Part shown: one piece after another, positions 34,563-55,281 of the stretch
Layout of the letters: every line of letters starts with the position of its first letter
How positions within the stretch are numbered: the first letter of the stretch is position 1
Assembly (NCBI GenBank): GCA_028821475.1
Contig: JAPPGB010000047.1
Coordinates: 1,136 to 65,135 of the forward strand
Origin: Spirochaetaceae bacterium
GTDB taxonomy: Bacteria; Spirochaetota; Spirochaetia; SZUA-6; Bin103
Reading direction: 5' to 3'
DNA length: 64,000 nt
The notes under the pieces: generated by a model
What the model was told of the DNA's origin: nothing
The model's input: only the letters and a program-made list of their open reading frames with translations
The model's database searches: none
Made by a program: the position numbers and the translations under genes

Positions 34563-34736
34563 GGGAGTCGCGGGCTGCCGCGGCGGCGGCCGCCGTCTCC
34601 CCATAGATGTACTACAAATCCTCCGCCAAAGTGAAGATCCGTCAGCGGGCCACGGCAGCCACCGGGCCGCGGGTGCACCGGCGGAGTTGTGGGAGATGCC
34701 GGCGGCGGCGAGGCGAGGGGACCGGTGCGTCAGCGG

Positions 34737-34838
34737 ATCCAATCCTCCACGTCGAGCCCGCCGATGTTCGCGAAGTGCTCCCGGTTGCCGGTTACCAGGA
34801 TGCAGCCGCTGGCCACGGCGATCGCCGAGATCTACAGC
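34737..34838 (-). pseudogene. VapC/PIN toxin C-terminal remnant preceded by in-frame TAG
   Basis: ISAIAVASGCILVTGNREHFANIGGLDVEDWIR* matches the VapC C-terminal consensus (IAAtA...LvTrN..dF). An amber lies immediately upstream and there is no intact N-terminus. Confidence 0.4.
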
Positions 34839-35096
34839 AGCGGTCGGCCCGGCGGTTCAGATAGGCCTGCTCGATGCCCTCCTGGATCTCGTGAAAGTCC
34901 GGCCAGGCCCCGCCAGCGCCGCCAGACCGGACGGTGAATCCACGGTTCCCACCTCGCCCATCACGGGAGTGATCACCGCTATCGGTCCCGCGCTGCAGGA
35001 CGTCACCGGCAGTGTCATCCTGTTGTCCGACAGGCTACTCCGGCTGGATCGTGGTATTCAGACCGGCTCTCGATCCCTGGGGTTGAAGTGACCATG

Positions 35097-35113
35097 TGAT
35101 GTCCATATGATAG
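35097..35113. promoter_or_regulatory. Perfect inverted repeat CATATGA-N3-TCATATG overlapping the phd start codon (candidate TA autoregulatory operator)
   Basis: Read directly. The ATG of the Phd gene (35118) lies just 3' of the right half-site. Confidence 0.35.
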
Positions 35114-35117
35114 TCAT

Positions 35118-35360
35118 ATGCGTTCGATCACCATTGCCAAGCTGAAGGCGACACTGAGTGCCGAGTTGCGGCGAGTCCGCGCGGGGGAGCGGGTCACGGT
35201 CCTCGATCGCACCACTCCGGTGGCGCTCCTCGCGCCGGTTCCGGCGGCGATCCGCGTGGTGCGGGCAGCGAAGGCGCCCTACGCCCACCGGACGCTGACG
35301 CCTCTGATGGCGCGCGATCCGTTGCCCTATCTGGACGAGGAGCGCGGCGAAGCTTGGTAG
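35118..35360 (+). CDS. Phd/prevent-host-death family antitoxin
   Basis: MRSITIAKLKATLSAELRRVRAGERVTVLDRTTPVALLAP. It overlaps the vapC start by 7 nt. Confidence 0.75.
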   Translation: MRSITIAKLKATLSAELRRVRAGERVTVLDRTTPVALLAPVPAAIRVVRAAKAPYAHRTLTPLMARDPLPYLDEERGEAW

Positions 35361-35782
35361 CCTATCTGGACTCCTCGGTTGTGCTGCGTCACATCCTGCT
35401 GGGCGAGGCATCCATCAGGCATGCGCTGGCGTTCCCACGCGTGGTGTCGAGTGAGCTGATCGAGATCGAGTGCCGAAGGGTACTGCATCGCTGCCGCCTC
35501 GCCGGCGAACTCGACGACGAGACCCTGGCGGCGGCGCACCAACGTCTGGATGCCGTGCTGGCCGGAATCGACCTCCTGGAGATGTCGACGCAGATCAAAC
35601 GGCGAGCAGCGGAACCGTTCCCGGTGCACGTGCGCACCCTCGACGCGCTGCATGTCGCGACCGCGCTCGCGGTCGGCGAGGATGTCGGTGGGCAGGATGT
35701 CGGTGGGACTGTACTGTTCTCGCACGACAAGGGCATGAACCTCTGCGCCGGATGCCTCGGGCTCACGGCAGCCTTGGTATAG
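35354..35782 (+). CDS. vapC: VapC family PIN-domain toxin
   Basis: MVAYLDSSVVLRHILLGE...DALHVATAL. Confidence 0.8.
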   Translation: MVAYLDSSVVLRHILLGEASIRHALAFPRVVSSELIEIECRRVLHRCRLAGELDDETLAAAHQRLDAVLAGIDLLEMSTQIKRRAAEPFPVHVRTLDALHVATALAVGEDVGGQDVGGTVLFSHDKGMNLCAGCLGLTAALV

Positions 35783-35920
35783 GCCCGGCCGCGACACGAT
35801 CCATGCGTACCCTCGCCAGGAACCGATGCAGTTCGTTGGACTCGGCGGGGTCGAGCGGGCGCGCCAACACCTCGTCTCGAACTTGCTGCGGCACGACGAC
35901 ATCGCCTCCCAGGACGCGGT
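35764..35920 (-). pseudogene. Internal fragment of a DUF3368 PIN-domain gene (paralog of 50259-50750)
   Basis: Encodes RVLGGDVVVPQQVRDEVLARPLDPAESNELHRFLARVRMDRV, about 80% identical to residues 25-66 of the intact copy. It lacks both ends and abuts the dppC 3' end at the junction ...caggacgcggt|cagacgctgccgc. Confidence 0.5.
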
Positions 35921-36792
35921 CAGACGCTGCCGCGCAGGCGGGGGTCGAGCAGGTCGCGCAGCGCGTCGCCGAACATGTTCAGACTGAACACGGTGATCGT
36001 CAGGCAAAGTCCCGGCCAGGCGGCCAGCCACGGCGCCCGCTCCATGTACTCACGTCCTTCCCGGCTGAGCAAGCCTCCCCAGCTCGGAACGGTGGGCGGC
36101 AGTCCAAACCCGAGGAAGCTCAGAGACGCCTCGGATATCATCACCCCGCCGATATTGATGCTGAACACGATGATTGCGACAGGCATGATATTGGGCAGGA
36201 CATGGCGCACGAACGCTCGCCACTTCGAGGCGCCAAGCGCCTCCGCGGCCTGAAAATAGAGATTCTCCTTGATGCCGACGACCGCGCCTCGCACCACCCG
36301 CGAGCCGCCGATGCCGCCGGCTATGCCCAGGACGACTATTATCTGCGTTACGCCGCGCCCGACCAGCGACATTATCGTCAACAGGATCAACAATCCCGGG
36401 AACGCCATCCAGGCATCGACGAATCTCTGCACGGCCAGGTCGAACTTGCCGCCGAGGAATCCGGACGTGCCCCCGATCAGGAGCGCCACCACGACATTGA
36501 TACTGGTGGCCGCCAGACCGACCGCTATCGACAGCCGGGCTCCGTAGATGACCCGGCTCAACAAGTCGCGCCCCAACTGGTCGGTGCCCAGCGGATGCCG
36601 GGCCGATGAGCCCTGCAGTCTGTCCCTGAGGTGCACTTCAAGGAAGCCGTAAGGGGCCAGAACATCGGCGAATACAGCCACGAGAATCAATAGCAATACG
36701 ACAATACCGCAACCGACACCGAGTGGCTGTTCCCTGACCATCCTGGCAACGAAATCAGCCAGCGCGGTACGCCTCCTGGTCGCTTCACGCAT
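35920..36792 (-). CDS. ABC transporter permease (DppC/OppC-like)
   Basis: Binding-protein-dependent permease fold with the EAAxxxGA region and the C-terminal MFGDALRDLLDPRLRGSV. Start overlaps the dppB stop (ATGCGTGA). Confidence 0.85.
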   Translation of the reverse strand: MREATRRRTALADFVARMVREQPLGVGCGIVVLLLILVAVFADVLAPYGFLEVHLRDRLQGSSARHPLGTDQLGRDLLSRVIYGARLSIAVGLAATSINVVVALLIGGTSGFLGGKFDLAVQRFVDAWMAFPGLLILLTIMSLVGRGVTQIIVVLGIAGGIGGSRVVRGAVVGIKENLYFQAAEALGASKWRAFVRHVLPNIMPVAIIVFSINIGGVMISEASLSFLGFGLPPTVPSWGGLLSREGREYMERAPWLAAWPGLCLTITVFSLNMFGDALRDLLDPRLRGSV

Positions 36793-37744
36793 AGCGGACC
36801 CGGGGGTCGAAAAGAGGATAAACCAGGTCTATCATCAAATTGAAGCACACCACCGCGGTTGCGAAAAACAGGTTCACCCCGGAGACCACCGGGTAGTCTC
36901 TTTCTTCGAGCGCCAACACCATGAGGCGACCCAATCCGGGCAGGTTGAAGATGTTCTCCATGATAACGGAGCCACCAACCAGGATAGGCAACTGCAGGCC
37001 GATCAGGGTAACCACCGGGATCAGGGCGTTCTTGATTGCGTGTCTCATGATGACGAATCGCTCCTTGAGGCCCTTGGACCACGCCGTCCTGATATAGTCC
37101 TGCCTCAGCACCTCCAGCATCATGGTACGCGTCAGCCGCATGGTGCCGGCAGCAAGAGCCGTGCCCAGAATCAGGCTCGGAACGATGAACACCGCGAGAT
37201 TGCCCAGCGGGTCTTGGGTGAAAGAGACCAGCCGCATCGGCGGCGACCAGCCCCACCAGAGTGCCGGGTAAATAATCACCATCAGGGCCAGCCAGAAGTT
37301 GGGCGTTGCCAGGCCGATGACGGCGGCGGCGCGCCCCACGTAGTCGGCGGCCGAATTACGGCGCACCGCCGAGTAGATGCCGACCGGCACGGCGATCACC
37401 AACCCGATCAGGATTGCCAGAACACCCAGCTCGATGGTCACCGGAAGTCTAGCCGATATTCTCTGCTCTATCGAAACATCGGTTCCCCACAGTGAATTTC
37501 CAAGCGTGCCGCGCAACAGGATACCTCCGATCCAGCGTCCATACTGCACGTGGAACGGCACGTCCAATCCAAGCTGTTTCTCGAGAGCTTCACGATCCGG
37601 CACAAACCCCATCATTTCCAGTTGAACCGTCATTGCGTCTATTGCATCGCCGGGGATGAAGCGCACCGAGAGAAACGTCACGACGGTGACGATGAACAGG
37701 GTGGGAATCATCAGCAGGAGCCGGCGGATGATGTAGGCTCTCAT
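36785..37744 (-). CDS. ABC transporter permease (DppB/OppB-like)
   Basis: 319 aa. The N-terminal MRAYIIRRLLLMIPTLFIVTVVTF is typical of DppB. Confidence 0.85.
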   Translation of the reverse strand: MRAYIIRRLLLMIPTLFIVTVVTFLSVRFIPGDAIDAMTVQLEMMGFVPDREALEKQLGLDVPFHVQYGRWIGGILLRGTLGNSLWGTDVSIEQRISARLPVTIELGVLAILIGLVIAVPVGIYSAVRRNSAADYVGRAAAVIGLATPNFWLALMVIIYPALWWGWSPPMRLVSFTQDPLGNLAVFIVPSLILGTALAAGTMRLTRTMMLEVLRQDYIRTAWSKGLKERFVIMRHAIKNALIPVVTLIGLQLPILVGGSVIMENIFNLPGLGRLMVLALEERDYPVVSGVNLFFATAVVCFNLMIDLVYPLFDPRVRYA

Positions 37745-37827
37745 GTCACATCACGTCAGTTCCGACGGGTAGAGGAAAACCGGGGGGCCTGAGCCCCCCA
37801 GTCTCAGCGGGCACTAGTTTACCAGTA

Positions 37828-39636
37828 CTAATTTAGCAGTTCTGCCTTCAGCTCCTGGTCAATCCAGACACGGGCGTACAGGTCGCTCATTTGCCAATTC
37901 CCCATGGTCGCTTCGCCGTTATACCCCTTCAACCACGGCTGGCTGACATGATACATCGGGGAAACGGGACCCCAGATATTCCAATGTTGCTCCAGCGCGT
38001 ACATGTCTATCTCGCGGAACCACCCGTGGTACTCGTCGAGACTCGTGCTCGCCTTCAGGGCATCAATCATGGCGTCCATGTGAGGATCGCTGACGACCGC
38101 GGCGTTACCTGAAGTGCCTGAATGCCACCCCGTTGCATGAGCCTCATTGAAGTAGTTGGCGCCCGATATCGAGCCTATGAGATCCTCGAATGTGCCTTCA
38201 CGCAGGACCGCGCCGAACTCGGCCCCTGTAGACAGCACCTGAATCTCCAGATCAATGCCAAGCTCGCTCCAGTATGCAGCCGCCAATTCAAAGTAGCTGA
38301 GAACAGAATTTGCGTGAAGGACAACGGAGGTCTTGAATCTCGTGCCGTCGGCGCCGCGCGGGTAGCCGGCCTCATCGAGGAGCTTCTCGGCACCTTCGGG
38401 ATCGTACCTGTGGCCCCTCTTCACCTCGTCCGGCCACTCCTCGAACGGGACGAAGAGCCCCTTCTGAGCTGTTCCGACCTTCCCATGAGGCGTGATATCT
38501 CCCCTCCCTCCGAGGTAGGTTTCGTTGATCGTCTCCATGTCCAGCGCCATCTGCAGTGCCTTGCGCACCCTGATGTCGTCGTACGGCGGGTTGCTGGTGT
38601 TGAACCCGAAAGCGAACTCGGACCGTACATAGTACGGCCACTGCGTAATTTCGGGGTTGCTCTTGGCGAGACTCTCCGCCAAGTCTATGGTCCGCAATTG
38701 GGCTTCACCTGCATACCCCCTGTAGTCGAGCTTGCCGGAGCGCAGTGCCGCCGTACGGGTAGCCTCTTCTCGCATGATCAGCGCCACCAGCTCGTCAATG
38801 TAGGGCAGGCGGTTGTCCGGGTACTTTTCGTCGAAGCCCCAGTAGTTGGGATTCTTGAGCCAGGTGACGGACGATCCTTCGACATAGTCGGTCAGCATGA
38901 ACGGCCCCGTGCCGACCAGGTTCCTCCAGTCGTTGATGTTGCCGTGTTCCTCGATCACCTCCGGTGGATGGATGTCGAACGTGTACCACTGGAGGAGCGT
39001 AAACAGCGCAACAGGGTTGGGCTGCGCCAGCTCGATAACGACCGTCCATTGGTCGGTGGCCGTTACCGATTCGACTCCCACTGCGCCCAGCGGGCCCGCT
39101 CCCGGGGCAACCTCCGTAAAGCCGCTGCCCAGGCCGAGATAGCGGTGATAGTTGTATGCGATGTCATCGGCAGTCAGCTCGCGACCGTTCATCGGCGGCT
39201 TGTCATGCCAGTGAACGCCCTGGCGGATGTTGAGAACGATGGTCGTGTCGTCGGGTGTTTCCCAGCTCTCCGCCAGCGATCCCGTGAGACTCCAGAGCGG
39301 CGTGTCGGAGCTGACCATGCTCCGGCCCCATTCGTCTGCCGGCAGAGCCCAGTTCGCTATCGATGGTTTCTCAAGCACGCCTTGGACGAGCAAGAGACCG
39401 GAGCGACCGTTCAACGCTTCGTCGGCGGCGCCCGTCTCGGGCATGACGGTGGCATAGGTCAATGTCCCGCCGTATCGTGGCGCCTCCACCATCTCCCCGG
39501 TTCTGGGGTCGAGCACCATTTCCTTCTCGGCCGCCGCGGCCGGCTGGTCGCTCTCGCCGCTGGCCCAGACGCCGGTCGCGGCCAGGACGAACACGAGCAC
39601 AACCACGAAAGGGTGTGCAATTCCTGGAAGATTCAT
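37828..39636 (-). CDS. ABC transporter substrate-binding protein (family 5, peptide/nickel type)
   Basis: Signal peptide MNLPGIAHPFVVVLVFVLAATGVWA and a GGGAG RBS. About 600 aa, typical SBP_bac_5 size. No ATPase genes in the operon. Confidence 0.8.
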   Translation of the reverse strand: MNLPGIAHPFVVVLVFVLAATGVWASGESDQPAAAAEKEMVLDPRTGEMVEAPRYGGTLTYATVMPETGAADEALNGRSGLLLVQGVLEKPSIANWALPADEWGRSMVSSDTPLWSLTGSLAESWETPDDTTIVLNIRQGVHWHDKPPMNGRELTADDIAYNYHRYLGLGSGFTEVAPGAGPLGAVGVESVTATDQWTVVIELAQPNPVALFTLLQWYTFDIHPPEVIEEHGNINDWRNLVGTGPFMLTDYVEGSSVTWLKNPNYWGFDEKYPDNRLPYIDELVALIMREEATRTAALRSGKLDYRGYAGEAQLRTIDLAESLAKSNPEITQWPYYVRSEFAFGFNTSNPPYDDIRVRKALQMALDMETINETYLGGRGDITPHGKVGTAQKGLFVPFEEWPDEVKRGHRYDPEGAEKLLDEAGYPRGADGTRFKTSVVLHANSVLSYFELAAAYWSELGIDLEIQVLSTGAEFGAVLREGTFEDLIGSISGANYFNEAHATGWHSGTSGNAAVVSDPHMDAMIDALKASTSLDEYHGWFREIDMYALEQHWNIWGPVSPMYHVSQPWLKGYNGEATMGNWQMSDLYARVWIDQELKAELLN

Positions 39637-39861
39637 ACTGATCTCTCCCACATGTGAGATTGTGAGAGTGCTTCCGGTGCGAGTTGCCGTTCCCTGCCCA
39701 CTCTCGCGCCCGCAACGCAGGCGGCCAAAGCCGAGACGGCAATCTCAGGTGGTCACGCGCGCGGCATGAGTGTGACTCACTCTAGCAGCTAGGCCGCGCG
39801 CATGCTGCGATTAGTGTTGCAGACGCGCGACTACCCGTCAACTCCGTCAGTTGTGCGGCTA

Positions 39862-39901
39862 TTGACCGAAGACCACATATGACACTATATGCGGTGTCAT
39901 G
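39862..39901 (+). promoter_or_regulatory. hicAB promoter/operator copy 1: TTGACC-N17-CTATAT with inverted repeat ATGACAC-N8-GTGTCAT overlapping -10 and start codon
   Basis: Read directly. An identical arrangement is present at 44974-45013 upstream of the second hicAB copy. Confidence 0.45.
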
Positions 39902-40306
39902 CCGGGGGTTGGACCGGGTGTCAACGCTGCCATCGTCTGGCTCAACGCGTATGCGTACAACATCACGGTGCGGGAGTGCGTCTTCGAAGGCGAACCACTG
40001 TTCGAGGCTCGCGTCAAGGAGCTGCCGGACGTTCGGGAATATGCGGAGTCCGCACAGGAAGCCTACGATCTGGCCATCGACACCATCGAGACGGCAGCCG
40101 GGATGTTTGCCGAGACCGGCCGGCCGTTCCCGCCCCCGACCAGCCCGCAGGATGAATTCAGCGGCCGCGTTACGCTGCGCATTCCCAGAAGCCTGCATCG
40201 TGCGCTGGCGAGCGCGGCCGAAGACGAGGGCGTGAGCCTCAACCAACACCTCGTCACGGCCCTGACCCGCCTACACGCGAGTGCCGGCGCCAAGCGGCAC
40301 GGATAG
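39899..40306 (+). CDS. hicB: HicB-family antitoxin fused in frame to the first 12 codons of hicA (hicA deleted)
   Basis: MPGVGPGVNAAI (hicA N-terminus) is joined to LNAYAYNITV...RIPRSLHRALASAAEDEGVSLNQHLVTAL (HicB C-terminal RHH-like). Apart from the deleted hicA segment and the altered junction (IVW here, M+MKR there), the HicB-coding part is identical to 45303-45680. Confidence 0.7.
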   Translation: MPGVGPGVNAAIVWLNAYAYNITVRECVFEGEPLFEARVKELPDVREYAESAQEAYDLAIDTIETAAGMFAETGRPFPPPTSPQDEFSGRVTLRIPRSLHRALASAAEDEGVSLNQHLVTALTRLHASAGAKRHG

Positions 40307-40406
40307 GGAGCCGGCACGCCGGATTGGCCGCGGCGCCGTCTCCCGTATCGCCCACGCCGGAGACGCCGCTTGACTTTGGCGCTGACCCAAGGCACACCAT
40401 CCACCC

Positions 40407-41525
40407 ATGCCACCTGTCACGGGACCCACGGACGGGCCGGTCGCCGTTACCGGCGCCTCCGGCTACATCGGATCGCACGTCGTCAAGAACCTGGTCGAGG
40501 CGGGCTACGCGGTGCGCGCCAGCGTGCGCGACGCCAGCCGCCGGGACAAGACAGAGTTCCTCCTGGCCATGAACGACCTTGGCGCGGGCAGCGTCGAGAT
40601 CTTCGCGGCCGACCTGCTGCAGGCCACCGGCGGCGCCTACGACGAGGTGTGTGCCGGCTGCTCGGCGGTGTTTCACGTCGCCGCCGACCTGGGCACCGAC
40701 GCCGCGTACGGAGAAGGCAGCGCGCAACGCACCTACAACGCCATCATGGACGGCACCAGGGGCGTGCTGGAGTCGTGTCGCAGGGCCGGCACCGTCAAGC
40801 GGGTGGTGTACACCTCGTCGTGCGCGGCGGTATGGAGTGGCTGGCGGGGTGGAGCCGACCCCAGCGGCTACGAGTTCACCGAGCGGGACTGGGGCGGCCA
40901 CGGCACCGCCGAGCACCTGTGGAACGTCGAGACGGCCTCCTACGCCAAGGGCAAGGTGGATGCCGAGAAGTATGGCTATGCCTGGGGCGAGGAGACCGGC
41001 ATCGACGTGGTCTCCAACATGCCCAGCCACGTGCTCGGTCCGGTGCTCAACAGGACACAGAACAATGTGTGGCAGAAGAAGATCGGCCAGGCGCTGTCCG
41101 GGCAAAGCGGGCTGGACGCCGCCGGGAACTGGATCGGCCTCGGCTTCGGGCCGGCCATCGCGACGCTGGAGGGCGCGTCGCCCGGCTTCCTGTGGAACGT
41201 GATCGACGTGCGCGACATCGGCCAGGCGCAGCGCCTGATGGCAACCAGCAGCGTCGCCACCAACGGATCCCGATACATCCTGGGCGCCACCGACGAGTCC
41301 GGCGAGCTCACCGCGCGGCAGATGCGCGCTGCGCTCAGCGAGCTGTATCCCGATGTCGCGGTGGGCGGCGACTGGCAGACGCCGGACACGCCGGACTTCT
41401 GGCACGCCAAGTGCACCAGGGCCATTCGCGAATTGGGGCTGGAGACCCACCCCGTGCTGGACACGCTCCGGGCCACCGGTGACTCGCTGCTGGAGTGCGG
41501 CGCCATCGAGCTGGCCAGGAAATAG
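40407..41525 (+). CDS. NAD-dependent epimerase/dehydratase family protein (extended SDR, reductase-like)
   Basis: N-terminal VAVTGASGYIGSHVV, and YAKGK (YxxxK) active site. Confidence 0.8.
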   Translation: MPPVTGPTDGPVAVTGASGYIGSHVVKNLVEAGYAVRASVRDASRRDKTEFLLAMNDLGAGSVEIFAADLLQATGGAYDEVCAGCSAVFHVAADLGTDAAYGEGSAQRTYNAIMDGTRGVLESCRRAGTVKRVVYTSSCAAVWSGWRGGADPSGYEFTERDWGGHGTAEHLWNVETASYAKGKVDAEKYGYAWGEETGIDVVSNMPSHVLGPVLNRTQNNVWQKKIGQALSGQSGLDAAGNWIGLGFGPAIATLEGASPGFLWNVIDVRDIGQAQRLMATSSVATNGSRYILGATDESGELTARQMRAALSELYPDVAVGGDWQTPDTPDFWHAKCTRAIRELGLETHPVLDTLRATGDSLLECGAIELARK

Positions 41526-41527
41526 CG

Positions 41528-41622: not shown

Positions 41623-41632
41623 AGCTTAGAAG

Positions 41633-42106
41633 CTAATCGGCTGCGCCGGCGGACGGCTCCCGGTCACCGCCGGCCTGCTCCTGCCGTGCGGCAGCCGCCC
41701 GTTCGATATCCGCGGCGATGCGGGCGCACAGGCGCTGGATGCGGCGCGCGTCGGCCGCCGCCCCGCGAGCGCCGGCCGGCTCTTCGTCGTACTCGAAGTA
41801 GAACGCCGGCGCGCGTCGCTCGGCCAATCGCGCGGAGACGGCGTGCACGTCGGCCGCTTCCACCTCGCTCAGGGGCATCTGCCGGGCGGCAAGCGTAGCC
41901 ACGAACAGTTCGGCGGCGTCGTGCACCTTCGGATAGTCGATGCACAGGTAGGTGAGCACCGCCTTCAGTGCCAGCTCCACGACTTCCTGCGCGCGGCGCA
42001 CCGCGATGTTCCACGAACCGCGGCGCAGCGCGCCCTCCATCTCCGCGAGGTGCTCGCGCGACGCCGCCAGCAGTTTGCGGCCGCGCTCGCCGTTGCTCAT
42101 CGCCAA
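41633..42106 (-). CDS. HEPN domain protein (toxin of HEPN/MNT pair)
   Basis: 157 aa, AVRRAQEVVELALKAVL...DYPKVHDAAELF (KTHDL-type HEPN motif). Downstream of the MNT gene. Confidence 0.7.
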   Translation of the reverse strand: MAMSNGERGRKLLAASREHLAEMEGALRRGSWNIAVRRAQEVVELALKAVLTYLCIDYPKVHDAAELFVATLAARQMPLSEVEAADVHAVSARLAERRAPAFYFEYDEEPAGARGAAADARRIQRLCARIAADIERAAAARQEQAGGDREPSAGAAD

Positions 42107-42116
42107 ACCCGCATGA

Positions 42117-42891: not shown

Positions 42892-42906
42892 TTCCTTCCC
42901 TCCGAT

Positions 42907-45680: not shown

Positions 45681-45735
45681 GGAGCCGGCACGCCGGATTG
45701 GCCGCGATTGGTCATTGTATCAACTCTGCGGGGTA

Positions 45736-46689: not shown

Positions 46690-46710
46690 GGGCTCTCCTC
46701 ATTGCACTCG

Positions 46711-46949: not shown

Positions 46950-46965
46950 CAGGTTGAAGATGTTC

Positions 46966-47688: not shown

Positions 47689-47689
47689 C

Positions 47690-47804
47690 GGAGGCGATCG
47701 TTCACGGCTACCACGTCGAGGAGATCGACATACAGGCAGCGCTCCAGTATGCGGCGGACCTGGGCCGCGATCGCGTCGTTGTTGTTCCTGCGCGTGATGC
47801 GTGA
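47690..47804 (+). pseudogene. 3' fragment of a DUF433-family gene (paralog)
   Basis: ...VEEIDIQAALQYAADLGRDRVVVVPARDA* aligns with the DUF433 C-terminus (DIKACLSFAADRERRFVSVPAE). Confidence 0.45.
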
Positions 47805-47807
47805 CGA

Positions 47808-47960
47808 GTGGAGTTCAAGATAGATGAGAACCTGCACTCTGACGCGGCCGCCCTATTGCGGCGCCATGGTCACGACGCCGTAACGGTCTACGAGCAGCGC
47901 CTGCGCGGAGGAAGTGACGAGGAAGTCATTGGCGTCTGCCGACGTGAAGGACGTGCACTT
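47808..47960 (+). pseudogene. 5' fragment of a DUF5615 (PIN-like) gene
   Basis: GTG start. MEFKIDENLHSDAAALLRRHGHDAVTVYEQRLRGGSDEEVIGVCRREGRAL aligns with the DUF5615 N-terminus (MKLLFDQNLSPRL...), after which the frame decays. Confidence 0.45.
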
Positions 47961-48311
47961 CGGCGCCGGTCATCCTCGACGAGGAGCAGTAAGCGCCCGA
48001 CCTGCTGCCCTATATCAAGGAGAAGATCGACGCCAACCGCGCCACGAGGTAAAGCTGTCCGCGACGCGGCGCCCGGCCATGGCCGCCGCCATCAAGACGT
48101 TGCACGGCGATTTGTGCCGCGCGGCACTGCCTGGATACGTGGTTCATCACGGCGCAGCGCCGCCACGGCATCGATTCGCCCGGTTGGCCACAGATCGAGC
48201 TGCGTCGGCTGCGGGACGAGCGCCAGCTCCTCGCCGAAGACGCTGCTGCGGCTGCTGCGACCCGGCGGTTGGCGCTGATGGGTTGGATTGATATACGTTA
48301 CGTTGGTCGAC

Positions 48312-49481
48312 ATGAAGACAACGGAGCAGCGCTTGTTCACTCCCGGCGACGGCGCAACGCCGCCAGCCCTCACCGGACGCGAGCGGGAGGAGGCGGTGCT
48401 GACGCGGTGCCTGGGCGACCTGCTCAGTGGCCGGGCACCACCGCACAACGTTGTCCTGACCGGGCCGCGCGGTACCGGCAAGACGGTGCTGCTCAACTGG
48501 TTCGAGCGCACCTGCCGCGACCACGTATCGGACGTCGACGTGCTGAAACTGACCCCGGACGATATTCCGACCCGGGACGCGCTGATCGAGGTTCTGGCGC
48601 CGACGCCCAAGTTAGCGAAGCTGCTGCCCCGCAAGCTGGGCGTGGCAACGGTGGGCTCGGTCGAGTGGGCGCCGCCCGCCGGGGGCATGCGCAACCTGCG
48701 GGATGAGTTGACCGCCCGGTGCCGCAGGAAGCCGCTGGCGACGCTGGTCGATGAGGCGCACACACTCGACCTGGTGGTGGGAAGAGCGCTGCTCAACGCC
48801 AGTCAAAAGGTGCGTGCCGACGCGCCGTTTCTGCTGGTGCTGGCGGGCACGCCAGGGTTGGCTGCGCATCTCGGCGCCATGAATGCGTCCTTCTGGAGCC
48901 GCTTGGGAGAGGGGCGCCTGGGCATCGGCCTGCTGAGCGACGCGGCCGCCCGCGCCGCCCTGGTCGAGCCGCTGGCCGCCCACGACGAGGGCATCGACGC
49001 CGACGCCCTCGCCACGGTGGTCGACGACAGCCAGTGCTATCCCTACTTTATCCAACTCTGGGGCGAGGCCCTGTGGGAGCGGCATCTGACTACCGGCGCG
49101 ACCCAACTCACCATCGCCCACGCAACTGCCGCGCGGCCCGGCGTGACCGCCAGGATCACCGACTACTACGAGGATCGATACCTGGAGTTGGATCGATCCG
49201 GCTGGCTGGCCGTTGCCGAGCGCGTGGCCGACCGCTTTCACTCCACGCCGACGCTGACCTACGAGCAGTTGAAGTCCGCGGTCGCCGCCGGTCTCGCTGC
49301 GAACGCGGACCCGCAGCAGGTGCATGCAGCCCTGACCGCCCTGCAACGCCTGGGTTTCGTCTGGCGCCCGCCCGGCCAGCTTCCGCCGGTCCGCTACGAG
49401 CCCGGCATTCCCTCGCTCATGGCCTACGTACTCGACCATGCCGCACCGACGCATGGAGAAGCACTTCCCGGAACCAGATAG
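48312..49481 (+). CDS. AAA+ ATPase domain protein (AAA_16/archaeal-ATPase-like)
   Basis: Walker A LTGPRGTGKTVLL, preceded by a (F)TGREREEAVL motif. Start at the ATG at 48312 (ORF track opens at a TTG at 48288). Its 5' end is repeated at 50192 and 52935. Confidence 0.7.
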   Translation: MKTTEQRLFTPGDGATPPALTGREREEAVLTRCLGDLLSGRAPPHNVVLTGPRGTGKTVLLNWFERTCRDHVSDVDVLKLTPDDIPTRDALIEVLAPTPKLAKLLPRKLGVATVGSVEWAPPAGGMRNLRDELTARCRRKPLATLVDEAHTLDLVVGRALLNASQKVRADAPFLLVLAGTPGLAAHLGAMNASFWSRLGEGRLGIGLLSDAAARAALVEPLAAHDEGIDADALATVVDDSQCYPYFIQLWGEALWERHLTTGATQLTIAHATAARPGVTARITDYYEDRYLELDRSGWLAVAERVADRFHSTPTLTYEQLKSAVAAGLAANADPQQVHAALTALQRLGFVWRPPGQLPPVRYEPGIPSLMAYVLDHAAPTHGEALPGTR

Positions 49482-49629: not shown

Positions 49630-49878
49630 TCACTCGTAGTGCGTCCACATTCGGAGCACCTTGACGACGCGCTCGCGTTCAAGGACCTGGTACACGAGGC
49701 GGTGCTGGATGTTGATCCGACGCGAACACGCTCCGGTCAGATCGCCAATCAGTTTCTCGAACGGTGGCGGGCTGCGCCAGGGATCCTCACGGAGCACCTG
49801 AAGGAGGCGCTCCACGTTCGTACGGAGCCCGGACGCAGCCACCTTCCGTGCGTCCTTTCGGGCTTGCCTGGTGAACAC
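49630..49878 (-). CDS. yoeB: YoeB/Txe family toxin
   Basis: ...LIGDLTGACSRRINIQHRLVYQVLERERVVKVLRMWTHYE. Confidence 0.8.
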   Translation of the reverse strand: MFTRQARKDARKVAASGLRTNVERLLQVLREDPWRSPPPFEKLIGDLTGACSRRINIQHRLVYQVLERERVVKVLRMWTHYE

Positions 49879-49888
49879 CAGTCGGTAG

Positions 49889-50131
49889 TCACCACCCAGG
49901 CTCTGCGTCGCACTCCTCCACGGGAGTTTCGAGTCCCTTCCGTATCGAATCGGTCATGCCGGGGATGGCGGACAGGTACAGCGTCTCCTGTATTGCATTC
50001 CAGTCTTCTTCGCTCACCAGGACCGCCGACCGCTCTTTTCCCGTTATCGTGACCGGAACATGCGATTCATTCACTTCATCGATGAGCCGGTACAGGTTCT
50101 TCCGTGCATTGGTGACATTCAAGGTCGCCAT
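49889..50131 (-). CDS. yefM: YefM/Phd family antitoxin
   Basis: MATLNVTNARKNLYRLIDEVNESHVPVTITGKERSAVLVSEEDWNAIQETLYL. Confidence 0.8.
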   Translation of the reverse strand: MATLNVTNARKNLYRLIDEVNESHVPVTITGKERSAVLVSEEDWNAIQETLYLSAIPGMTDSIRKGLETPVEECDAEPGW

Positions 50132-50191: not shown

Positions 50192-50250
50192 TGTCGATAT
50201 GAAGACGACGGAGCACGCCTGTTCACTCCCGGCGACGGCGCCGCGCCGTG
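50192..50250 (+). pseudogene. 5' fragment of the AAA ATPase gene (copy 2, about 17 codons)
   Basis: GTCGATATGAAGACGACGGAGCACGCCTGTTCACTCCCGGCGACGGCGCC matches the start of 48312-49481 and then runs into the 3' end of the opposite-strand PIN gene. Confidence 0.5.
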
Positions 50251-50258
50251 CGCGCCAG

Positions 50259-50750
50259 CTACGGCCTGTCGATCTCGCGCATCACCGCCGCATACAGTTC
50301 TACCCCGATGCGAAAGCCATGGGAGCGCACGAGGTCGTCGACCAGCCGGCGCACCTCGGCCCGGTCGACCAGTCTCCGCCGCAGCGCCAGCAGCAATACG
50401 CCAACGGTGCCGAGCGGTCGAATTCCTTCCACCGTGGCCAGGCGGCGAACGGTCCGGTCGTCGGCGAGCAGCAGGTCCGCTTCGAGTCGGACGGCCAGCG
50501 TCATGGCCGCATTGTCGGCGCGGCTCATGCCGACGGCAAAGCCGCGCGGGCTGTCGACGCGTTCCATGCGTACCGCCGCCAGAAACCGATGCAGTTCATC
50601 GGACTCGGCCCGGTCGAGCGGACCCGCCAACACCTCGTCTCGAACCTGTTGCGGCACCGCGACATCGTCTCCCAGGACGCGGTGAATCAGGTCAAGGCGC
50701 CGGATCTTGCCCAGAAATATCAGCGGACTTGCATCGGCGACGACGGTCAA
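50259..50750 (-). CDS. DUF3368 PIN-domain protein (toxin)
   Basis: 163 aa, VVADASPLIFLGKIRRLDLI...LLLADDRTVRRLA...GIRPLGTVGVLL. Confidence 0.75.
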   Translation of the reverse strand: MTVVADASPLIFLGKIRRLDLIHRVLGDDVAVPQQVRDEVLAGPLDRAESDELHRFLAAVRMERVDSPRGFAVGMSRADNAAMTLAVRLEADLLLADDRTVRRLATVEGIRPLGTVGVLLLALRRRLVDRAEVRRLVDDLVRSHGFRIGVELYAAVMREIDRP

Positions 50751-51073
50751 AGCGGCTGCAGGTCCGCCGCCAAGTCCTCCGGACCGTAGTTCAACACCAA
50801 GTCCTGATCGCGCAAACGGAGAATCAGGTCACGGAGGCTCAGGCCGGCAATCTCGGCGGCACGCGAGAGGGTTACTTCCCCGCGCCGGTACTCGTGGCAA
50901 GCACGTTCGAGCAGGAGCGCGCTGGTACCTCGTCGAACCGCCCACCGCAACAGGGTGGAGCGGTCGACACCCATAGCCTGCGCGGTGCTCTCCAGGCGAG
51001 ACACCTCGGACTCCGGCAGTCGCAGCGATACGGTTACCGTTTGCACGTATACAACTCCGCACCATGTATACAC
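50747..51073 (-). CDS. UPF0175 family protein (antitoxin partner of DUF3368)
   Basis: ...ACHEYRRGEVTLSRAAEIAGLSLRDLILRLRDQDLVLNYGPEDLAADL matches UPF0175 (YRrGelSlgkAAelAGms..eF). Start uncertain. Confidence 0.7.
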   Translation of the reverse strand: MYTWCGVVYVQTVTVSLRLPESEVSRLESTAQAMGVDRSTLLRWAVRRGTSALLLERACHEYRRGEVTLSRAAEIAGLSLRDLILRLRDQDLVLNYGPEDLAADLQPL

Positions 51074-51134
51074 GGTGCGGTGCCCACCGTCAACTACGAT
51101 GTCGATGTCCGGGTTGGTCAGCTTGAAGCGGCGG

Positions 51135-52076
51135 TCAGACGCTGCCGCGCAGGCGGGGGTCGAGCAGGTCGCGCAGCGCGTCGCCGAACATGTTGATGCT
51201 GTACACGACGATGGTCAGGCACAGGCCCGGCCAGATCGCCAGCCGCGGCGCCATCTCCATGTACTGGCGGCCCTCCCGGCTCAGCATCCCGCCCCAGCTC
51301 GGCACCCCGGGCGGCAGCCCGAACCCCAGGAAGCTCAACGACGCCTCCGCCACGATGATGCCGCCGATGGTGATCGAGAAGATCACGATGATCGGCGCCA
51401 TGATGTTGGGCAGCACGTGCCGCAGCAGGGTCGCGAAGGTGCGCTCGCCAATGGCCTGCGCGGCCTGGAAGTAGTCGTTCTCCTTGATGCCGATCACCGC
51501 GCCGCGCACCACCCGCGAGTTGGTGATGCCGGACGATACCCCCAGAATCACTATGATCTGCAGCAGCCCCTGCCCGGCGATCGACATGATGGTGAGCAAC
51601 AGCAGCAGGCCCGGGAACGACATCCAGGCGTCCACGAACCGCTGCACCAGGAGGTCCAGCTTGCCACCGATGAACCCCGCGGTGCCGCCGATCAGCACCG
51701 CGACCACCACGTGCAACGTGGTCGCCGCCAGGCCGACGAACAGCGAGATGCGCGCCCCGTAGATCAGGCGGCTCAGAAAGTCGCGCCCGAGCTGGTCGGT
51801 GCCGAGCGGATACTCGCCCGACGGGCCTTGCAGCCGGTCGGCCAGCGTCATCTGGTTGGGATCGTGCCCTGCCAGGTACGGTGCGAAGATGCTGACCAGG
51901 ACCAGCGCCAGCAGCACCACGCCCCCGAACGCACCCAGGGGCTGCTCCTTGATGAATCGTCGCGGCAACCCGCCCAGGAACAACCGGCGCTCCACTCGCT
52001 TTGTCGCCGAACCGGCGGCTGCCCGTTCGGCTCCTCGTTCGTCCGGCGCTCGCCCGGACGGCACTCGCCCGGCCAT
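51135..52076 (-). CDS. DppC/OppC-like ABC permease, paralog copy 4
   Basis: Full length from MAGRVPSG... Its ATG overlaps the stop of the truncated dppB upstream. Its 3' 65 bp are 100% identical to the 3' end of copy 1 (35915-35975). Confidence 0.75.
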   Translation of the reverse strand: MAGRVPSGRAPDERGAERAAAGSATKRVERRLFLGGLPRRFIKEQPLGAFGGVVLLALVLVSIFAPYLAGHDPNQMTLADRLQGPSGEYPLGTDQLGRDFLSRLIYGARISLFVGLAATTLHVVVAVLIGGTAGFIGGKLDLLVQRFVDAWMSFPGLLLLLTIMSIAGQGLLQIIVILGVSSGITNSRVVRGAVIGIKENDYFQAAQAIGERTFATLLRHVLPNIMAPIIVIFSITIGGIIVAEASLSFLGFGLPPGVPSWGGMLSREGRQYMEMAPRLAIWPGLCLTIVVYSINMFGDALRDLLDPRLRGSV

Positions 52077-52912
52077 CAGCGGTACCCGACCCGCGGATCC
52101 AGAACGGCGTAGATCAGGTCGACCACCAGGTTGATTGCCATCACCGAGGCCGCGAACGTCAAGTTTACGCCGGAGACCACCGGGTAGTCGCGGTCGTTGA
52201 GCGCGTCCAGCATGAGGCGGCCGAGCCCCGGCAGACTGAAGATGCTCTCCATGATCACCGAGCCGCCGATCAGGATCGGCATCTGCAGGCCGATCAGCGT
52301 CACCACCGGGATCAGGGCGTTCTTGATCGCGTGTCTGACGATCACGACCTGCTCCTGCAGACCCTTGGACCAGGCGGTCCTGACGTAGTCCTGCCGGAGT
52401 ACCTCCAGCATCATGGTGCGCGTCATCCGCATCGTGGCCGCGGCCAGGTAGGTGCCCAGAATCAGGCTCGGCACGATGAACACGCCGATGCTGCCCAGCG
52501 GATCGTCGCGGAACGGCACCAGCGTCAACGGTGGCGACCACGCCCACCAGATGGCAGGGAAGGTCAGAATCAGGGTCGCCAGCCAGAAGTTGGGGGTGGC
52601 CAGGCCGATGATGGCGACCGACCGACCGACGTAGTCGGCGGCCGTATTGCGGCGCATCGCGGAGTAGATGCCGACCGGCAGCCCGATCAGCAACCCGATC
52701 ACGATCGCCATCACTCCCAGTTGGACGGTTGCCGGTAACCTGGCGAGTATCTTCTCCTCGACCCGCCAGTCGCCCAGGAGGGAATTGCCCAGCGTGCCGT
52801 GCAGGAAGATATCCCCCAGCCAGCGTCCATACTGCACGTAGATCGGCCGGTCCAGTCCCAACATCCGCTCCAGCTTTTCACGGTCTATATCGGGATCCAT
52901 GAAACTCGCCAT
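52076..52912 (-). pseudogene. DppB-like permease paralog, N-terminally truncated (lacks first ~43 codons)
   Basis: Begins MASFMDPDIDREKLERMLGLDRPIYVQYGRWLG, corresponding to residue about 43 onward of the intact DppB. TM1 is missing. The 5' end abuts AAA-ATPase fragment copy 3. Confidence 0.6.
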
Positions 52913-52934
52913 TTGCGCCGCCAACGCCTGGTCG

Positions 52935-53152
52935 ACATGAAGACAACAGAGCAGCGCCTGTTCACTCCCGGCGACGGCGCCACGCCGCCAGCCCTCACCG
53001 GACGCGAGCGGGAGGAGGCGGTGCTGACGCGGTGCCTGGGCGAACTGCTCGGCGGCCGGGCGCCACCGCACAACGTCGTCCTGACCGGGCCGCGCGGTAC
53101 CGGCAAGACGGTGCTGCTCAACTGGTCGAGCGCGCCTGCCGCGATTACGTAG
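52935..53152 (+). pseudogene. 5' fragment of the AAA ATPase gene (copy 3, about 70 codons, 1-nt deletion then divergence)
   Basis: About 93% identical to 48309-48520 up to AACTGGT-CGAGCGC (a single T is missing relative to copy 1). A stop follows after ...LLNWSSAPAAIT*. Confidence 0.6.
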
Positions 53153-53182
53153 CGGACTGGTTCGTGGTATTCTGATTGCAAC

Positions 53183-53704
53183 GTGTCGTCTCCCAACCAG
53201 CAGCATCGGGGTCATGGATACCCCGAACTGAAGCCACTTCTGGATCTGTACCTGGGCAGGGTGCGCGACGGACTCGGGGAACGCGTGTCGGCGGTAGCCC
53301 TCTATGGCTCGGTGGCACGCGGACAGGCGCAGGCGGGGAGCGACGTGGATCTGTTCGTGGTCCATCGCGGCCCGCGTGCTGCCGTGTTCGAGGTATTCCT
53401 GCAGGTCGCGCTGCAGTTGCGCGACCATCCGCTCGTTCGTGAGTTGCAGGCGCGCAAGGTTCCGACCGAGCCGTACGCGGTGTTCCGTACCGAGACGGAG
53501 CTGGCCGATACCCCCTGGCTGCTGCTGGACATCACTGACCACGGCATCATTCTGTTCGATCCGCGCCACGTGCTGGCGCGCAAGCTGGCGAGCCTGCGGC
53601 TGCGGCTGCGCGAACTTGGCTCGCGCCGCGTGGAGCTGGCCGATGGCTCGTGGTATTGGGACCTGAAGCCCGATATGCGTCCCGGCGAGGTCATCGCCCT
53701 GTAG
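53183..53704 (+). CDS. Minimal nucleotidyltransferase (MNT) domain protein, paralog of 42117-42656
   Basis: LYGSVARGQAQAGSDVDLFVV, about 70% identical to the other MNT. Start uncertain (GTG at 53183). Confidence 0.7.
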   Translation: MSSPNQQHRGHGYPELKPLLDLYLGRVRDGLGERVSAVALYGSVARGQAQAGSDVDLFVVHRGPRAAVFEVFLQVALQLRDHPLVRELQARKVPTEPYAVFRTETELADTPWLLLDITDHGIILFDPRHVLARKLASLRLRLRELGSRRVELADGSWYWDLKPDMRPGEVIAL

Positions 53705-53720
53705 CGACGCAGCGGTTGCC

Positions 53721-53858
53721 ATGGACAACGGGGAGCGCGGCCGCAGGCTGATGGCGATGGCCGCCGAGTACTTGCAGGATATGGACGCCGCCGCCGGCCG
53801 CGGCTGCTGCGACTACGGCGGTGGCGAAAGAATCACCGAGCCGACACGGCCGATGTAG
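53721..53858 (+). pseudogene. Truncated HEPN gene remnant (45 codons)
   Basis: MDNGERGRRLMAMAAEYLQDMDAAAG... resembles the HEPN N-terminus (MSNGERGRKLLAASREHLAEMEGAL...) and then terminates. It is overlapped by the opposite-strand vapC. Confidence 0.5.
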
Positions 53859-54214
53859 GCGAAGTGGCGGTCGGTGGTGAGCACGGTGGCGCCCTCGCGC
53901 GCCGCGAGGGCGGCAATCCAGATGTCGTTCGTGGGAATCGGCATTCCGTGACGGCGCAACTCGACCACGATGTCGGCGTAGTGCGATGCCGCTTCGTCGT
54001 CCACGGACAGGATGGCAACCACCGATTCCTCGATGAACTGCCGGAGCCGCTCCTCGTTCTCGGCGCGGCGCGTGCCGCGGCGGAACCCCACCCTGAGTTC
54101 GCCCAGGACGATGGCCGGCAGCAACACCGTCCGCGCCCGGGTCACGGTTCGCACCGCCTCCGGCATGCCTCGCCTGAAGTGGCTGTAGCCGGAGGTGTCC
54201 AGACAGATGCGCAT
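53813..54214 (-). CDS. vapC: VapC family PIN-domain toxin
   Basis: MRICLDTSGYSHFRRG...LAAREGATVLTTDRHF. Confidence 0.8.
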   Translation of the reverse strand: MRICLDTSGYSHFRRGMPEAVRTVTRARTVLLPAIVLGELRVGFRRGTRRAENEERLRQFIEESVVAILSVDDEAASHYADIVVELRRHGMPIPTNDIWIAALAAREGATVLTTDRHFAYIGRVGSVILSPPP

Positions 54215-54465
54215 CAGCGCCAGAGTTCCTCGTCGACCTGCTCGAACATCCTGGTGTTGGCCTCGAATTCCTGCAGGTCGGCCTTGCTCCAGTCGCCTGC
54301 ATGGCGGCCGAGCCCGTTGTCATACGATGCATCCGGAGCGACTCCGAGTGCGCGGCGCAGCAGATCGATCACGGTCGCGTTCAGGGAGCCGCCGCGGCGC
54401 GTTTTCTCCGCCATGAGAGCCTCCGCCAGTTCGGCCGGTACATTGCGAACGGTGAGATGTGTCAT
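54214..54465 (-). CDS. vapB: VapB/FitA-like ribbon-helix-helix antitoxin
   Basis: MTHLTVRNVPAELAEALMAEKTRRGGSLNATVIDLLRRALGV. Its stop overlaps the vapC start. Confidence 0.7.
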   Translation of the reverse strand: MTHLTVRNVPAELAEALMAEKTRRGGSLNATVIDLLRRALGVAPDASYDNGLGRHAGDWSKADLQEFEANTRMFEQVDEELWR

Positions 54466-54570
54466 GCGCCCTTCCTTATGTGCATTCACTGAATACACTA
54501 TTTGAACGCATTACTCGCGTCAACCACGGGCGCGCCGCCTCCACGCCGCCTCCTCATCGATTCTGGCCGT

Positions 54571-54954
54571 TCAGGCGCGCGCAGGCAGGACGTTCACCGC
54601 GTATTCGTGGATCATCGCGTCGGTCGTGACCAGCGTCAGCCCAAGCGTCTGCGCCTGCGCAATCAGGAGCCGGTCGAAGGGATCGCGATGCAGCATCGGG
54701 AGTGCTTCGACCAACTCGGCGTGCTGCCAGCGGACCGGCAGTTCCAGGAACCCCTGCTCGGCGATTTCGGTGACGTAGTCGTCGCCGATTTCGAGCTTGC
54801 CGAGCGCCCGCTTGATGGCGATCTCCCAGATGGCGGCAGCGCTCACGTAGACGACGTTGTCGGTGTCCTGAACGGCCGCGCGAGCCTCGTCAGGCAACTC
54901 GGGCGTGTCGCCGAGCCACCACAGCACGATCTGCGTGTCAAGGAGCAGATTCAC
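54571..54954 (-). CDS. vapC: VapC family PIN-domain toxin
   Basis: GTG start inside a GTGA overlap with the antitoxin stop. LLLDTQIVLWWLGD...DPFDRLLIAQAQTLGLTLVTTDAMI. Confidence 0.75.
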   Translation of the reverse strand: MNLLLDTQIVLWWLGDTPELPDEARAAVQDTDNVVYVSAAAIWEIAIKRALGKLEIGDDYVTEIAEQGFLELPVRWQHAELVEALPMLHRDPFDRLLIAQAQTLGLTLVTTDAMIHEYAVNVLPARA

Positions 54955-55184
54955 CGTGCGCCAAACGCCTCCGCCAGGTCCTCCGGTAGATCGTCGAAAT
55001 CGGGTGCGATGCGTATCTTGCCGCGCATGGTTCCCGGCCGTCGTTGCGGCGAGGAACTCTGGTAGGAGCGGAGCACGGCAGCCGGCTTGCCCGCCTTGCC
55101 GATGATCACTTCCTCGCCGGCCTGCACCCGCGCGATGAGTTCGGACAGCCGCGCCTTCGCCTCGGTAACGGTGTTCACGACCAT
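54951..55184 (-). CDS. Phd/prevent-host-death family antitoxin
   Basis: MVVNTVTEAKARLSELIARVQAGEEVIIGKAGKPAAVL. Confidence 0.7.
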   Translation of the reverse strand: MVVNTVTEAKARLSELIARVQAGEEVIIGKAGKPAAVLRSYQSSSPQRRPGTMRGKIRIAPDFDDLPEDLAEAFGAR

Positions 55185-55281
55185 GACGGATCGTACCACA
55201 CTCTCCCGGGGCAGGACCAGACCAGACCAGATCAGACCGCCTTGCCGAAGTCACCGGTGGTTGCGGCCGGCGCCCTTGGGT

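Follow-up and report, generated by a model that had tools for sequence, protein, structure and literature searches.

Toxin-antitoxin genes at 34.7-55.25 kb

In a 64-kb stretch of Spirochaetaceae DNA (contig JAPPGB010000047.1; hereafter the window), which makes up nearly all of a 66.8-kb metagenome scaffold (ENA ERZ23495471, ROBB21-1_SAMN13943213 scaffold_951), we found a dense cluster of toxin-antitoxin (TA) genes at 34.7-55.25 kb. This region carries six intact TA pairs, two HicB genes each preceded by a broken open reading frame (ORF) for a putative toxin, and no fewer than seven TA fragments. Among them lie a dppABC operon and three dppB/dppC units that are truncated or orphaned. Of 21 TA-like ORF matches in the window, 18 fell within this 20.5 kb, which represents 32% of its length (binomial P = 5.9e-7), and the locus holds ∼14 intact or broken TA loci, or approximately one TA element per 1.5 kb. 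Gene content was drawn from the public gene calls of the scaffold with their Pfam annotation, from our own ORF, Pfam and NCBIfam scans, and from a PDB search; Pfam was also run on stop-to-stop segments in the gaps between genes, and 54940-55900 was covered by separate ORF scans.

The six intact pairs consist of small, adjacent, co-oriented genes for an antitoxin and a toxin domain, with overlaps of 1-7 nt or short spacers, which is, judged from the sequence, the gene organization of type II/VII TA modules. At the left, a called gene for a Phd-type antitoxin (35118-35360, +; weak match, PhdYeFM E 0.022, NCBIfam phd_fam E 0.0033) overlaps the start of the gene for a VapC-like PIN-domain toxin of 142 aa (35354-35782, +; PF01850). 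The remaining pairs all lie on the reverse strand: MNT (42117-42656) and HEPN (41633-42100), spanning 41633-42656 (PF01909, PF05168); YefM (49889-50131) and YoeB (49630-49878), spanning 49630-50131 (PF02604, PF06769); UPF0175 (50747-51046) and a DUF3368 PIN-like protein (50259-50750), spanning 50259-51046 (PF03683, PF11848); a ribbon-helix-helix (RHH) FitA-like antitoxin (54214-54465; PF22513, weak) and a PIN toxin (53813-54214; PF01850), spanning 53813-54465; and Phd (54951-55199; PhdYeFM E 3.9e-9, phd_fam E 8.7e-11) and a PIN toxin (54571-54954; PF01850), which at 54571-55199 form the right edge of the TA spot. An earlier note on this DNA, made by reading the letters and ORFs, had listed these same six pairs (two Phd/VapC, VapBC, YefM/YoeB, HEPN/MNT and UPF0175/DUF3368-PIN), and all were recovered with Pfam or NCBIfam. 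The G+C content of yefM is 56%, and foreign origin is one possible reading of such atypical composition.

The two hicB loci were read from PF05534 matches and translations. In copy 1 (39854-40332, +; called HicB gene at 39899-40306), 262 nt are deleted relative to copy 2, and the upstream ORF is left with its first 13 codons, fused in frame to HicB. Copy 2 (44966-45706, +; HicB at 45306-45680) retains an upstream HicA-like ORF from 45011 that is frameshifted near 45185-45192. The two copies share 394 nt over hicB at 99.5% identity, with two mismatches (39939-40332 and 45313-45706), and 85 nt of the 5' region at 94% (39854-39938 and 44966-45050). They had been proposed to be two hicAB pairs with a defective hicA. 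Two HicB genes and a broken upstream ORF are indeed present, but the HicA identity found no backing in Pfam or PDB: with its frameshift repaired, the upstream ORF matched no Pfam family at E <= 1, including HicA (PF07927), and no HicA structure in the PDB, and it can be termed HicA-like by position and motif only. An inverted repeat, TGACAC...GTGTCA, at 39870-39900 and 44985-45010 in the conserved 5' region of both copies looks like an operator for autoregulation.

Leftmost among the fragments is a 33-codon C-terminal remnant of a VapC (PIN) toxin (34733-34831, −) with no antitoxin partner; the codon just before it is TAG, and its translation aligned in the PDB search with residues 105-131 of 132, the last 27, of solved VapC proteins (E 0.0025-0.0085). 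DUF3368 is represented by an internal fragment that abuts the stop codon of the dppC gene of the complete operon, dppC_A (35792-35920, −; 87.6% identical to 50555-50683, phmmer 3e-16), and by a 3'-end fragment (43117-43313, −; Pfam E 4.6e-10 at 43136-43273, 89% identical to 50255-50438). Right after the stop codon of the latter begins a start-less 78-codon 3' ORF piece (42884-43120, −), which neighbors orf60 (42709-42891, −; called gene/ORF); neither matched a family. A DUF433 remnant (47631-47801, +; Pfam E 8.9e-4, below cut-off) is followed by an N-terminal DUF5615 remnant (47814-47960, +; Pfam E 7.9e-8). A second MNT gene is intact (53183-53704, +; PF01909), in an inverted repeat of 70-71% with 42018-42530, and 3' of it HEPN is cut to an N-terminal stub of 36 codons (53721-53828, +; HEPN1 phmmer 8e-4 on 53667-53855).

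Broken copies are not limited to recognizable TA genes. An intact gene for a 389-aa AAA_16/AAA_22 P-loop ATPase (AAA16; 48312-49481, +; Pfam, with a weak orc1/cdc6-like NCBIfam match) is accompanied by two 5' stubs (94% and 89% identity in self-BLASTN), each with a 1-nt deletion: one of 57 nt (50193-50248, +) starts 6 nt upstream of the ATG, and one of 230 nt (52929-53157, +; 94% to 48304-48533) starts 8 nt upstream of it and truncates the dppB gene of the rightmost dpp unit. The inventory of wrecks in the earlier note thus largely stood, with its VapC tail behind an amber codon, second MNT with a HEPN stub, start-less 3' ORF pieces and repeated 5' ends of an AAA-ATPase gene; its DUF433/DUF5615 remnants amount to one piece of each at 47631-47960, and its three separate DUF3368-PIN pieces to two. 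Erosion often hits the toxin first, as in three loci here (the HicA-like ORF twice, and HEPN beside an intact MNT), and the orphan antitoxins left behind (HicB twice and the second MNT) may persist as anti-addiction remnants.

TA genes also occur outside the region, with a DUF5615 ORF at 22589-22804 (+) and a Phd/PIN_3 pair at 26483-27149 (−) next to housekeeping genes. This genome therefore seems TA-rich in general, at ∼1/13 of the density of the region.

The dpp array and related genomes

The region was compared with related genomes through a DppA scan of species-representative genomes, which yielded 75 loci, labelled L003-L077, each read within 10 kb on either side of dppA. These relatives are long-read metagenome-assembled genomes (MAGs) deposited as 'Spirochaetia bacterium' or 'bacterium', with contigs of 0.8 to 7.8 Mb, and the window itself comes from an uncultured bacterium with 66-71% G+C and a large genome (7-7.8 Mb in the relatives). 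In the window, Pfam and self-BLAST identified one complete dppABC operon and three further full or truncated dppB/dppC units, as had been described before. The operon (35920-39636, −) comprises dppA (37828-39636), dppB (36785-37744) and dppC (35920-36792), with SBP_bac_5 and BPD_transp_1/OppC_N domains. An orphan intact dppC, dppC_B (45736-46689, −; OppC_N/BPD_transp_1), has orthologues at 92-95% nucleotide identity inside full dppABC operons of L027 and L069; relaxed selection on this orphan was considered and not detected, its dN/dS (the ratio of nonsynonymous to synonymous divergence, dS) of 0.14-0.25 being as between relatives. Next to it lie a dppB 3'-end remnant of ∼55 codons (46794-46967, −; BPD_transp_1 positions 129-183 of 184, E 3.8e-7; 90-92% to dppB 3' ends of L027, L069 and L076) and a start-less dppC fragment comprising the 3' 229 codons (46966-47652, −; 75-77% to other dppC copies by self-BLAST, 88% to L049 and L050). 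The last unit (51135-52912, −; called genes with Pfam matches) holds dppC_D (51135-52076) and dppB_D (52076-52912), the latter without its first 41 codons, including the first transmembrane segment (TM1). The four dppC copies are 74-83% identical (self-BLASTN E 1e-125 to 0), and the dpp paralogues of the window are old (dS 0.5-1.0, dN/dS ∼0.3). The 36000-40000 interval holding the dppABC operon has 59-63% G+C, compared to 66-71% in its surroundings, and foreign origin or a membrane-protein bias are both possible readings.

No dppD or dppF ATPase gene adjoins the operon at 35920-39636. An ABC_tran gene at 33564-34562 was considered as the missing ATPase, cut off from the operon by the insertion of a VapBC pair, and set aside as part of an ABC-2 exporter operon, given that ABC2_membrane, ABC_transp_aux and DUF4340 genes follow it. 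The absence of ATPase genes had been pointed out previously, and it is real, but it does not represent breakage: 64-70 of the 75 related loci are the same, and just 5 (by Walker A/LSGGQ motif) to 11 (by tblastn) of the 75 have an ABC ATPase within 10 kb, so that ATPase-less dppABC operons are the norm in this lineage. Across these loci, 1.55 Mb in total, we counted 120 full dppA, 117 dppB and 103 dppC genes (340 full genes) and 142 partial ones, truncated dpp genes being common genome-wide. Presumably, dozens of Dpp-type importers per genome are served by ATPases encoded elsewhere. This would resemble known multitask-ATPase importers of the MsiK/MsmK type, in which one ATPase serves several systems and an operon likewise encodes a binding protein and two permeases without an ATPase (PMC7658222). 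Those cases are mostly sugar importers (CUT1), few per genome, in contrast to the Dpp/Opp-type (SBP_bac_5) genes in dozens of tandem copies seen here. The view that the dpp units were cassettes recombined along with the TA modules did not hold; they are better described as a native tandem array in which TA modules have piled up.

A non-coding element of ∼90 nt with three predicted hairpins occurs at 46710-46799, upstream of dppC_B, and, 84% identical, at 61432-61520, upstream of a CoA-binding protein gene. In L038 and L046, pieces of it lie 300-700 nt upstream of dppA, and L025 and L051 contain such pieces as well. The element had no Rfam match, and its folding z-score was only −1.3.

The sister genome L003 (DppA 96% identical at the amino acid level) shares 56% of the region at 86-97% nucleotide identity in 16 blocks. 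Relative orientation is kept in 15 of these, while their order is changed, with at least 13 blocks rearranged with respect to the window. Apart from neighbors inside one module, just the succession of epimerase, spacer and dppABC has stayed together. MNT/HEPN (96.5% nucleotide identity, dN/dS 0.15-0.21) and YefM/YoeB (94.7%; YoeB dN/dS 0.13) both stand in a different context in L003. The dppABC operon (96.7% in L003 and 91% in L004; dN/dS 0.11-0.19 against L003) and the D unit (95.4%; dN/dS 0.08-0.10) are also shared, and dppB_D is full length in L003 (319 aa, 3959-4918), which places its truncation in the lineage of the window. Similarly, an AAA_14/DUF4143 ATPase gene occupies in L003 the position of hicAB copy 1, which, together with the 99.5% identity to copy 2, indicates that copy 1 is a recent duplication. 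Over the shared dpp, MNT/HEPN, YefM/YoeB and epimerase genes, dS was 0.06-0.14 and dN/dS 0.07-0.34 (0.13-0.34 for the TA pairs), values indicating that the shared modules are retained under purifying selection in the sister genome. The word graveyard in the earlier note is therefore apt for the broken copies, but not for the intact modules common to both genomes.

L003 has wrecks of its own: a HEPN tail, three pieces of the second MNT and one copy of it interrupted by a stop codon, a 5' piece of the epimerase gene immediately behind dppC, and pieces of DUF3368 and dppA. Given that L003 derives from long reads, this fragment-and-shuffle pattern is not only a short-read artefact. The orf60/start-less ORF region (42709-43120) recurs in L003, L032 and L056. 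In the more distant L004, with an orthologous dppABC (91% nucleotide identity, DppA 91% at the amino acid level), no TA match was found within 10 kb. TA content and order thus vary between related genomes: in the comparison that had been suggested, the same modules appear scrambled in L003 and none is detectable in L004.

Among the shared genes, AAA16 is the exception, with a dS of 0.33 to the L003 copy. The 230-nt stub is 92-94% identical to the L003 and L044 genes, compared to only 87% for the intact window copy, and so looks like the remnant of the orthologue, while the intact gene, from its dS, is probably a retained paralogue of the L003 copy. The intact AAA16 genes of the window, L003 and L044 share sequence further upstream than the boundary, GTCGA(C/T)ATG, at which the stubs begin.

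Among the non-TA cargo, an NAD-dependent epimerase/dehydratase gene (40407-41525, +; Pfam Epimerase) is 95.7% identical to its L003 counterpart (dN/dS 0.20), and of a fatty-acid hydroxylase family gene (43709-44740, −; PF04116), the last ∼19 codons are left in L003 (L003 6530-6629 matches 43662-43765). Conversely, a DUF222-like HNH endonuclease is reduced in the window to 27 codons (43296-43376, −; tblastn 96% to residues 851-877 of the L003 protein) and is intact in L003 (14025-16808, −), where it has 927 aa, six tandem 24-residue repeats and an HNH motif at the C-terminus whose Pfam match (E 4e-4) falls just short of the cut-off. This gene is also found at L004:4533-6755, in L025, at L044:20290-21766 and at L053:7653-7922, and it adjoins RHH/PIN pairs in L044 and L053.

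Repeats, junctions and mobility

Internal repeats were present beyond chance, as predicted, in an all-vs-all comparison of the window by self-BLASTN (E 1e-13 to 0). The junctions of these repeats had been described as sharp and reused, and this fared less uniformly. The ends of two dppC genes share an exact run of 64 nt (35916-35979 and 51131-51194), in line with the 65 identical bp reported before, but the run is weak evidence of a reused junction because it consists mostly of codons of a near-invariant motif: 42 of the 64 nt encode NMFGDA[VL]RDLLDPR, which averages ∼90% nucleotide identity over 124 dppC copies. We therefore rejected it as a recombination scar, since the motif largely explains it. 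The second junction, given as a shared ccagctacg, was found as CCAGCTACG at both 43117 and 50255. Where the internal DUF3368 fragment meets the stop codon of dppC_A, the two sequences share the 4-nt microhomology GCGG. Downstream of dppC_D, where the arrangement is intact, GCGG occurs at each of the two equivalent positions, as would be expected if a microhomology-mediated deletion had removed UPF0175 together with the 5' portion of DUF3368. Such a deletion would explain this junction better than reuse. We also discarded the idea that the 3' junction of HEPN recurs at exactly the same nucleotide in three contexts, as L003 and L056 share ∼14 more nt than the window.

The surroundings of the region are those of an ordinary chromosome. 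The left flank encodes RarA, an FGGY kinase, a sigma-54 activator, a catalase and the ABC-2 exporter operon (29.6-34.6 kb), and the right flank (55.1-64 kb) a NUDIX protein, an enolase-superfamily enzyme, a hydrolase and a sulfatase. G+C content is 64-73% in 2-kb windows, with a dip to ∼60% at 36-40 kb. No integrase, transposase or tRNA was detected in the 64 kb among called genes, ORFs and in a tRNA check, and a tRNA-linked island was rejected on the last of these grounds. Prophage or plasmid origin was rejected after a megablast of the 20.5 kb gave no phage match and only trivial plasmid matches of 49-175 nt, and a structured RNA search gave no Rfam match at gathering score. Farther out, a stand-alone Peptidase_S24 (LexA/UmuD-like) ORF (7540-7860, −) adjoins an ORF of ∼1600 aa (8289-13127, +) with internal repeats at 8580-11699 by self-BLAST.

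Some features of the junctions could suggest a cassette system driven by dedicated recombination or a nuclease, either integron-like or acting through repair after DUF222-like HNH breaks. Homology blocks often end 0-14 nt past stop codons, both AAA16 stubs begin at GTCGA(C/T)ATG, and block orientation is conserved between genomes; an HNH gene is moreover present in the loci of L003 and L004 and beside RHH/PIN genes in L044 and L053, with a remnant in the window. However, the missing integrase and transposase speak against such a system, the HEPN 3' junction falls at differing nucleotides between contexts, no common motif was seen across breakpoints, and the HNH assignment relies on a Pfam match below cut-off for a protein of which the window keeps 27 codons only. 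An integron in particular was rejected, as no IntI was found among the called genes and ORFs of the window and no attC cores lie at the junctions: a simple R''/R' core-motif scan, rather than a full attC covariance model, returned three distinct core pairs compared to 1.6 ± 2.1 expected, all inside AAA16 and dppC coding sequence, in agreement with the earlier impression that attC-like sites were lacking. Blocks that end 0-14 nt after stop codons also leave no room for an attC site. We thus consider a dedicated cassette system very improbable. Scarcely more probable is a locus-associated mechanism, such as HNH double-strand breaks repaired by copying array paralogues, that would move TA modules via reused boundaries. 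If true, TA modules would have a means of moving that needs no recombinase, and the modules might in turn stabilize a repetitive ATPase-less transporter array against recombinational collapse.

Turnover of TA modules and known TA clusters

Taken together, our results make it likely that the region is a chromosomal TA spot: within a native array of tandem, ATPase-less dppA-B-C paralogues, it would be a permissive stretch where genes turn over fast. The L003 and L004 comparisons and the absence of integrase support the previous proposal of a hotspot, devoid of integron machinery, in which TA modules build up, are duplicated and decay, while the arrival of modules, the insertion step of that proposal, is something we infer. 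The array offers many co-oriented, partly identical sequences, and unequal recombination among them could duplicate segments in successive rounds, after which microhomology-mediated deletions and differential loss of duplicates would yield the observed patchwork, with no dedicated recombinase involved. As presumably addictive, selfish units, TA modules would be kept and would accumulate, and the surrounding dpp paralogues are redundant, so that their disruption would cost little. With the same phmmer queries, TA matches reached 0.88 per kb in the region and 0.55 in L003, compared to 0.017 in the other 74 dpp-array loci, a density ∼50 times that of the latter.

Several points weigh against this interpretation. 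The census queries came from the window and undercount unrelated TA families elsewhere, which inflates the density contrast, although it is still large. Both whole-locus orthology and the TA absence in L004 hold only within 10 kb of dppA. Relative to the ATG, the starts of the two AAA16 stubs lie no more than 2 nt apart, next to unrelated left flanks, which is not readily explained by random breakage. Finally, the window is a short-read metagenome scaffold whose own junctions are spanned by no independent assembly, and a metagenome scan with DppA returned only relatives at <=52% identity, with which no junction could be confirmed. An assembly artefact, in which a chimeric path through repeats or strain variants hides a simpler true locus, could account for the patchwork, and the 394-nt hicB repeat at 99.5% identity is longer than a typical short read. 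Yet this repeat is the only one with sufficient similarity to misdirect an assembler; all others, at 72-94% identity, would be neither collapsed nor wrongly joined. The scaffold has no N gaps, and the two hicB copies can be told apart by the 262-nt indel and by their flanks, which are unique on either side. The long-read MAGs also show this phenomenon, with HEPN, MNT, epimerase, DUF3368 and dpp genes in pieces and truncated dpp copies across the 75 loci. Chimerism is therefore unlikely to explain the whole pattern, although it is possible for individual junctions of the window.

Alternatively, the modules could be kept mainly as anti-phage (abortive-infection) systems, making the region a defence island. 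In PADLOC, both proteins of the UPF0175/DUF3368 pair matched the candidate system PDC-S70 and both MNT proteins the candidates PDC-S09 and PDC-M05A, and the purifying selection on intact pairs is consistent with a function of this kind. However, PADLOC detected no established system (such as restriction-modification, CRISPR or cyclic-oligonucleotide-based signalling, CBASS), candidates covered four of ten proteins, and the AAA16, PIN and HicB proteins had no match. Many modules are broken, and TA clusters are seldom found alongside antiphage systems in the case studied in most detail (PMC13617665). We regard defence as an improbable main reason for the retention of these modules.

There is continuing debate over how TA modules on chromosomes spread, are maintained and disappear when no mobile elements are evident. 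An unusually dense natural example is offered by this locus and its counterpart in the sister genome, with six intact pairs and at least seven wrecks in 20 kb, and modules that were reshuffled at ∼10% synonymous divergence while still under purifying selection. More genomes of this lineage could allow duplication, deletion and erosion events to be dated and ordered. The tandem arrays of ATPase-less Dpp importers raise a separate testable question concerning shared ATPases and array stability.

TA-rich variable regions have reportedly been described in free-living bacteria such as Mycobacterium tuberculosis and Nitrosomonas, in work attributed to Pandey and Gerdes in 2005 and to Ramage and colleagues in 2009, and there too VapBC, Phd/YefM, HicAB and MNT/HEPN families are said to be expanded and clustered in accessory regions. 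In our case, by contrast, a sister genome reveals module shuffling at a dS of ∼0.1, and the cluster lies within an ABC-importer array. A second parallel is the Vibrio superintegron, which also holds many TA modules within a long array of direct repeats, these being attC sites instead of dpp paralogues. The V. cholerae superintegron has 17 TA modules in 126 kb (PMC5543033), and the density here is ∼five times higher, with no intI, no attC at junctions and genes on both strands. For the TA cassettes of Vibrio superintegrons, a role in counteracting loss by recombination has been proposed (Szekeres et al. 2007; Iqbal et al. 2015; reviewed in PMC5543033), and a similar stabilizing role is possible, by analogy, for the modules in this array.

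The closest match is with Photorhabdus chromosomes, where TA modules cluster in small high-turnover spots with frequent toxin pseudogenization (Belot et al., Mol Biol Evol 2026, PMC13617665). Both cases share co-localized TA modules in small, rapidly changing intervals, content that differs between related genomes, loss through deletion or toxin pseudogenization, and no preservation of the neighborhood by the TA modules (PMC13617665). The present region differs in its much higher density, the absence of a transposase or integrase nearby and its position inside a tandem transporter-operon array, in an unrelated, uncultured, high-G+C lineage. With excess co-localization, variable content and eroded copies, it is a TA spot in the sense of that study (PMC13617665). 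None of our findings requires a new kind of system, and the locus is a dense case of this known type.

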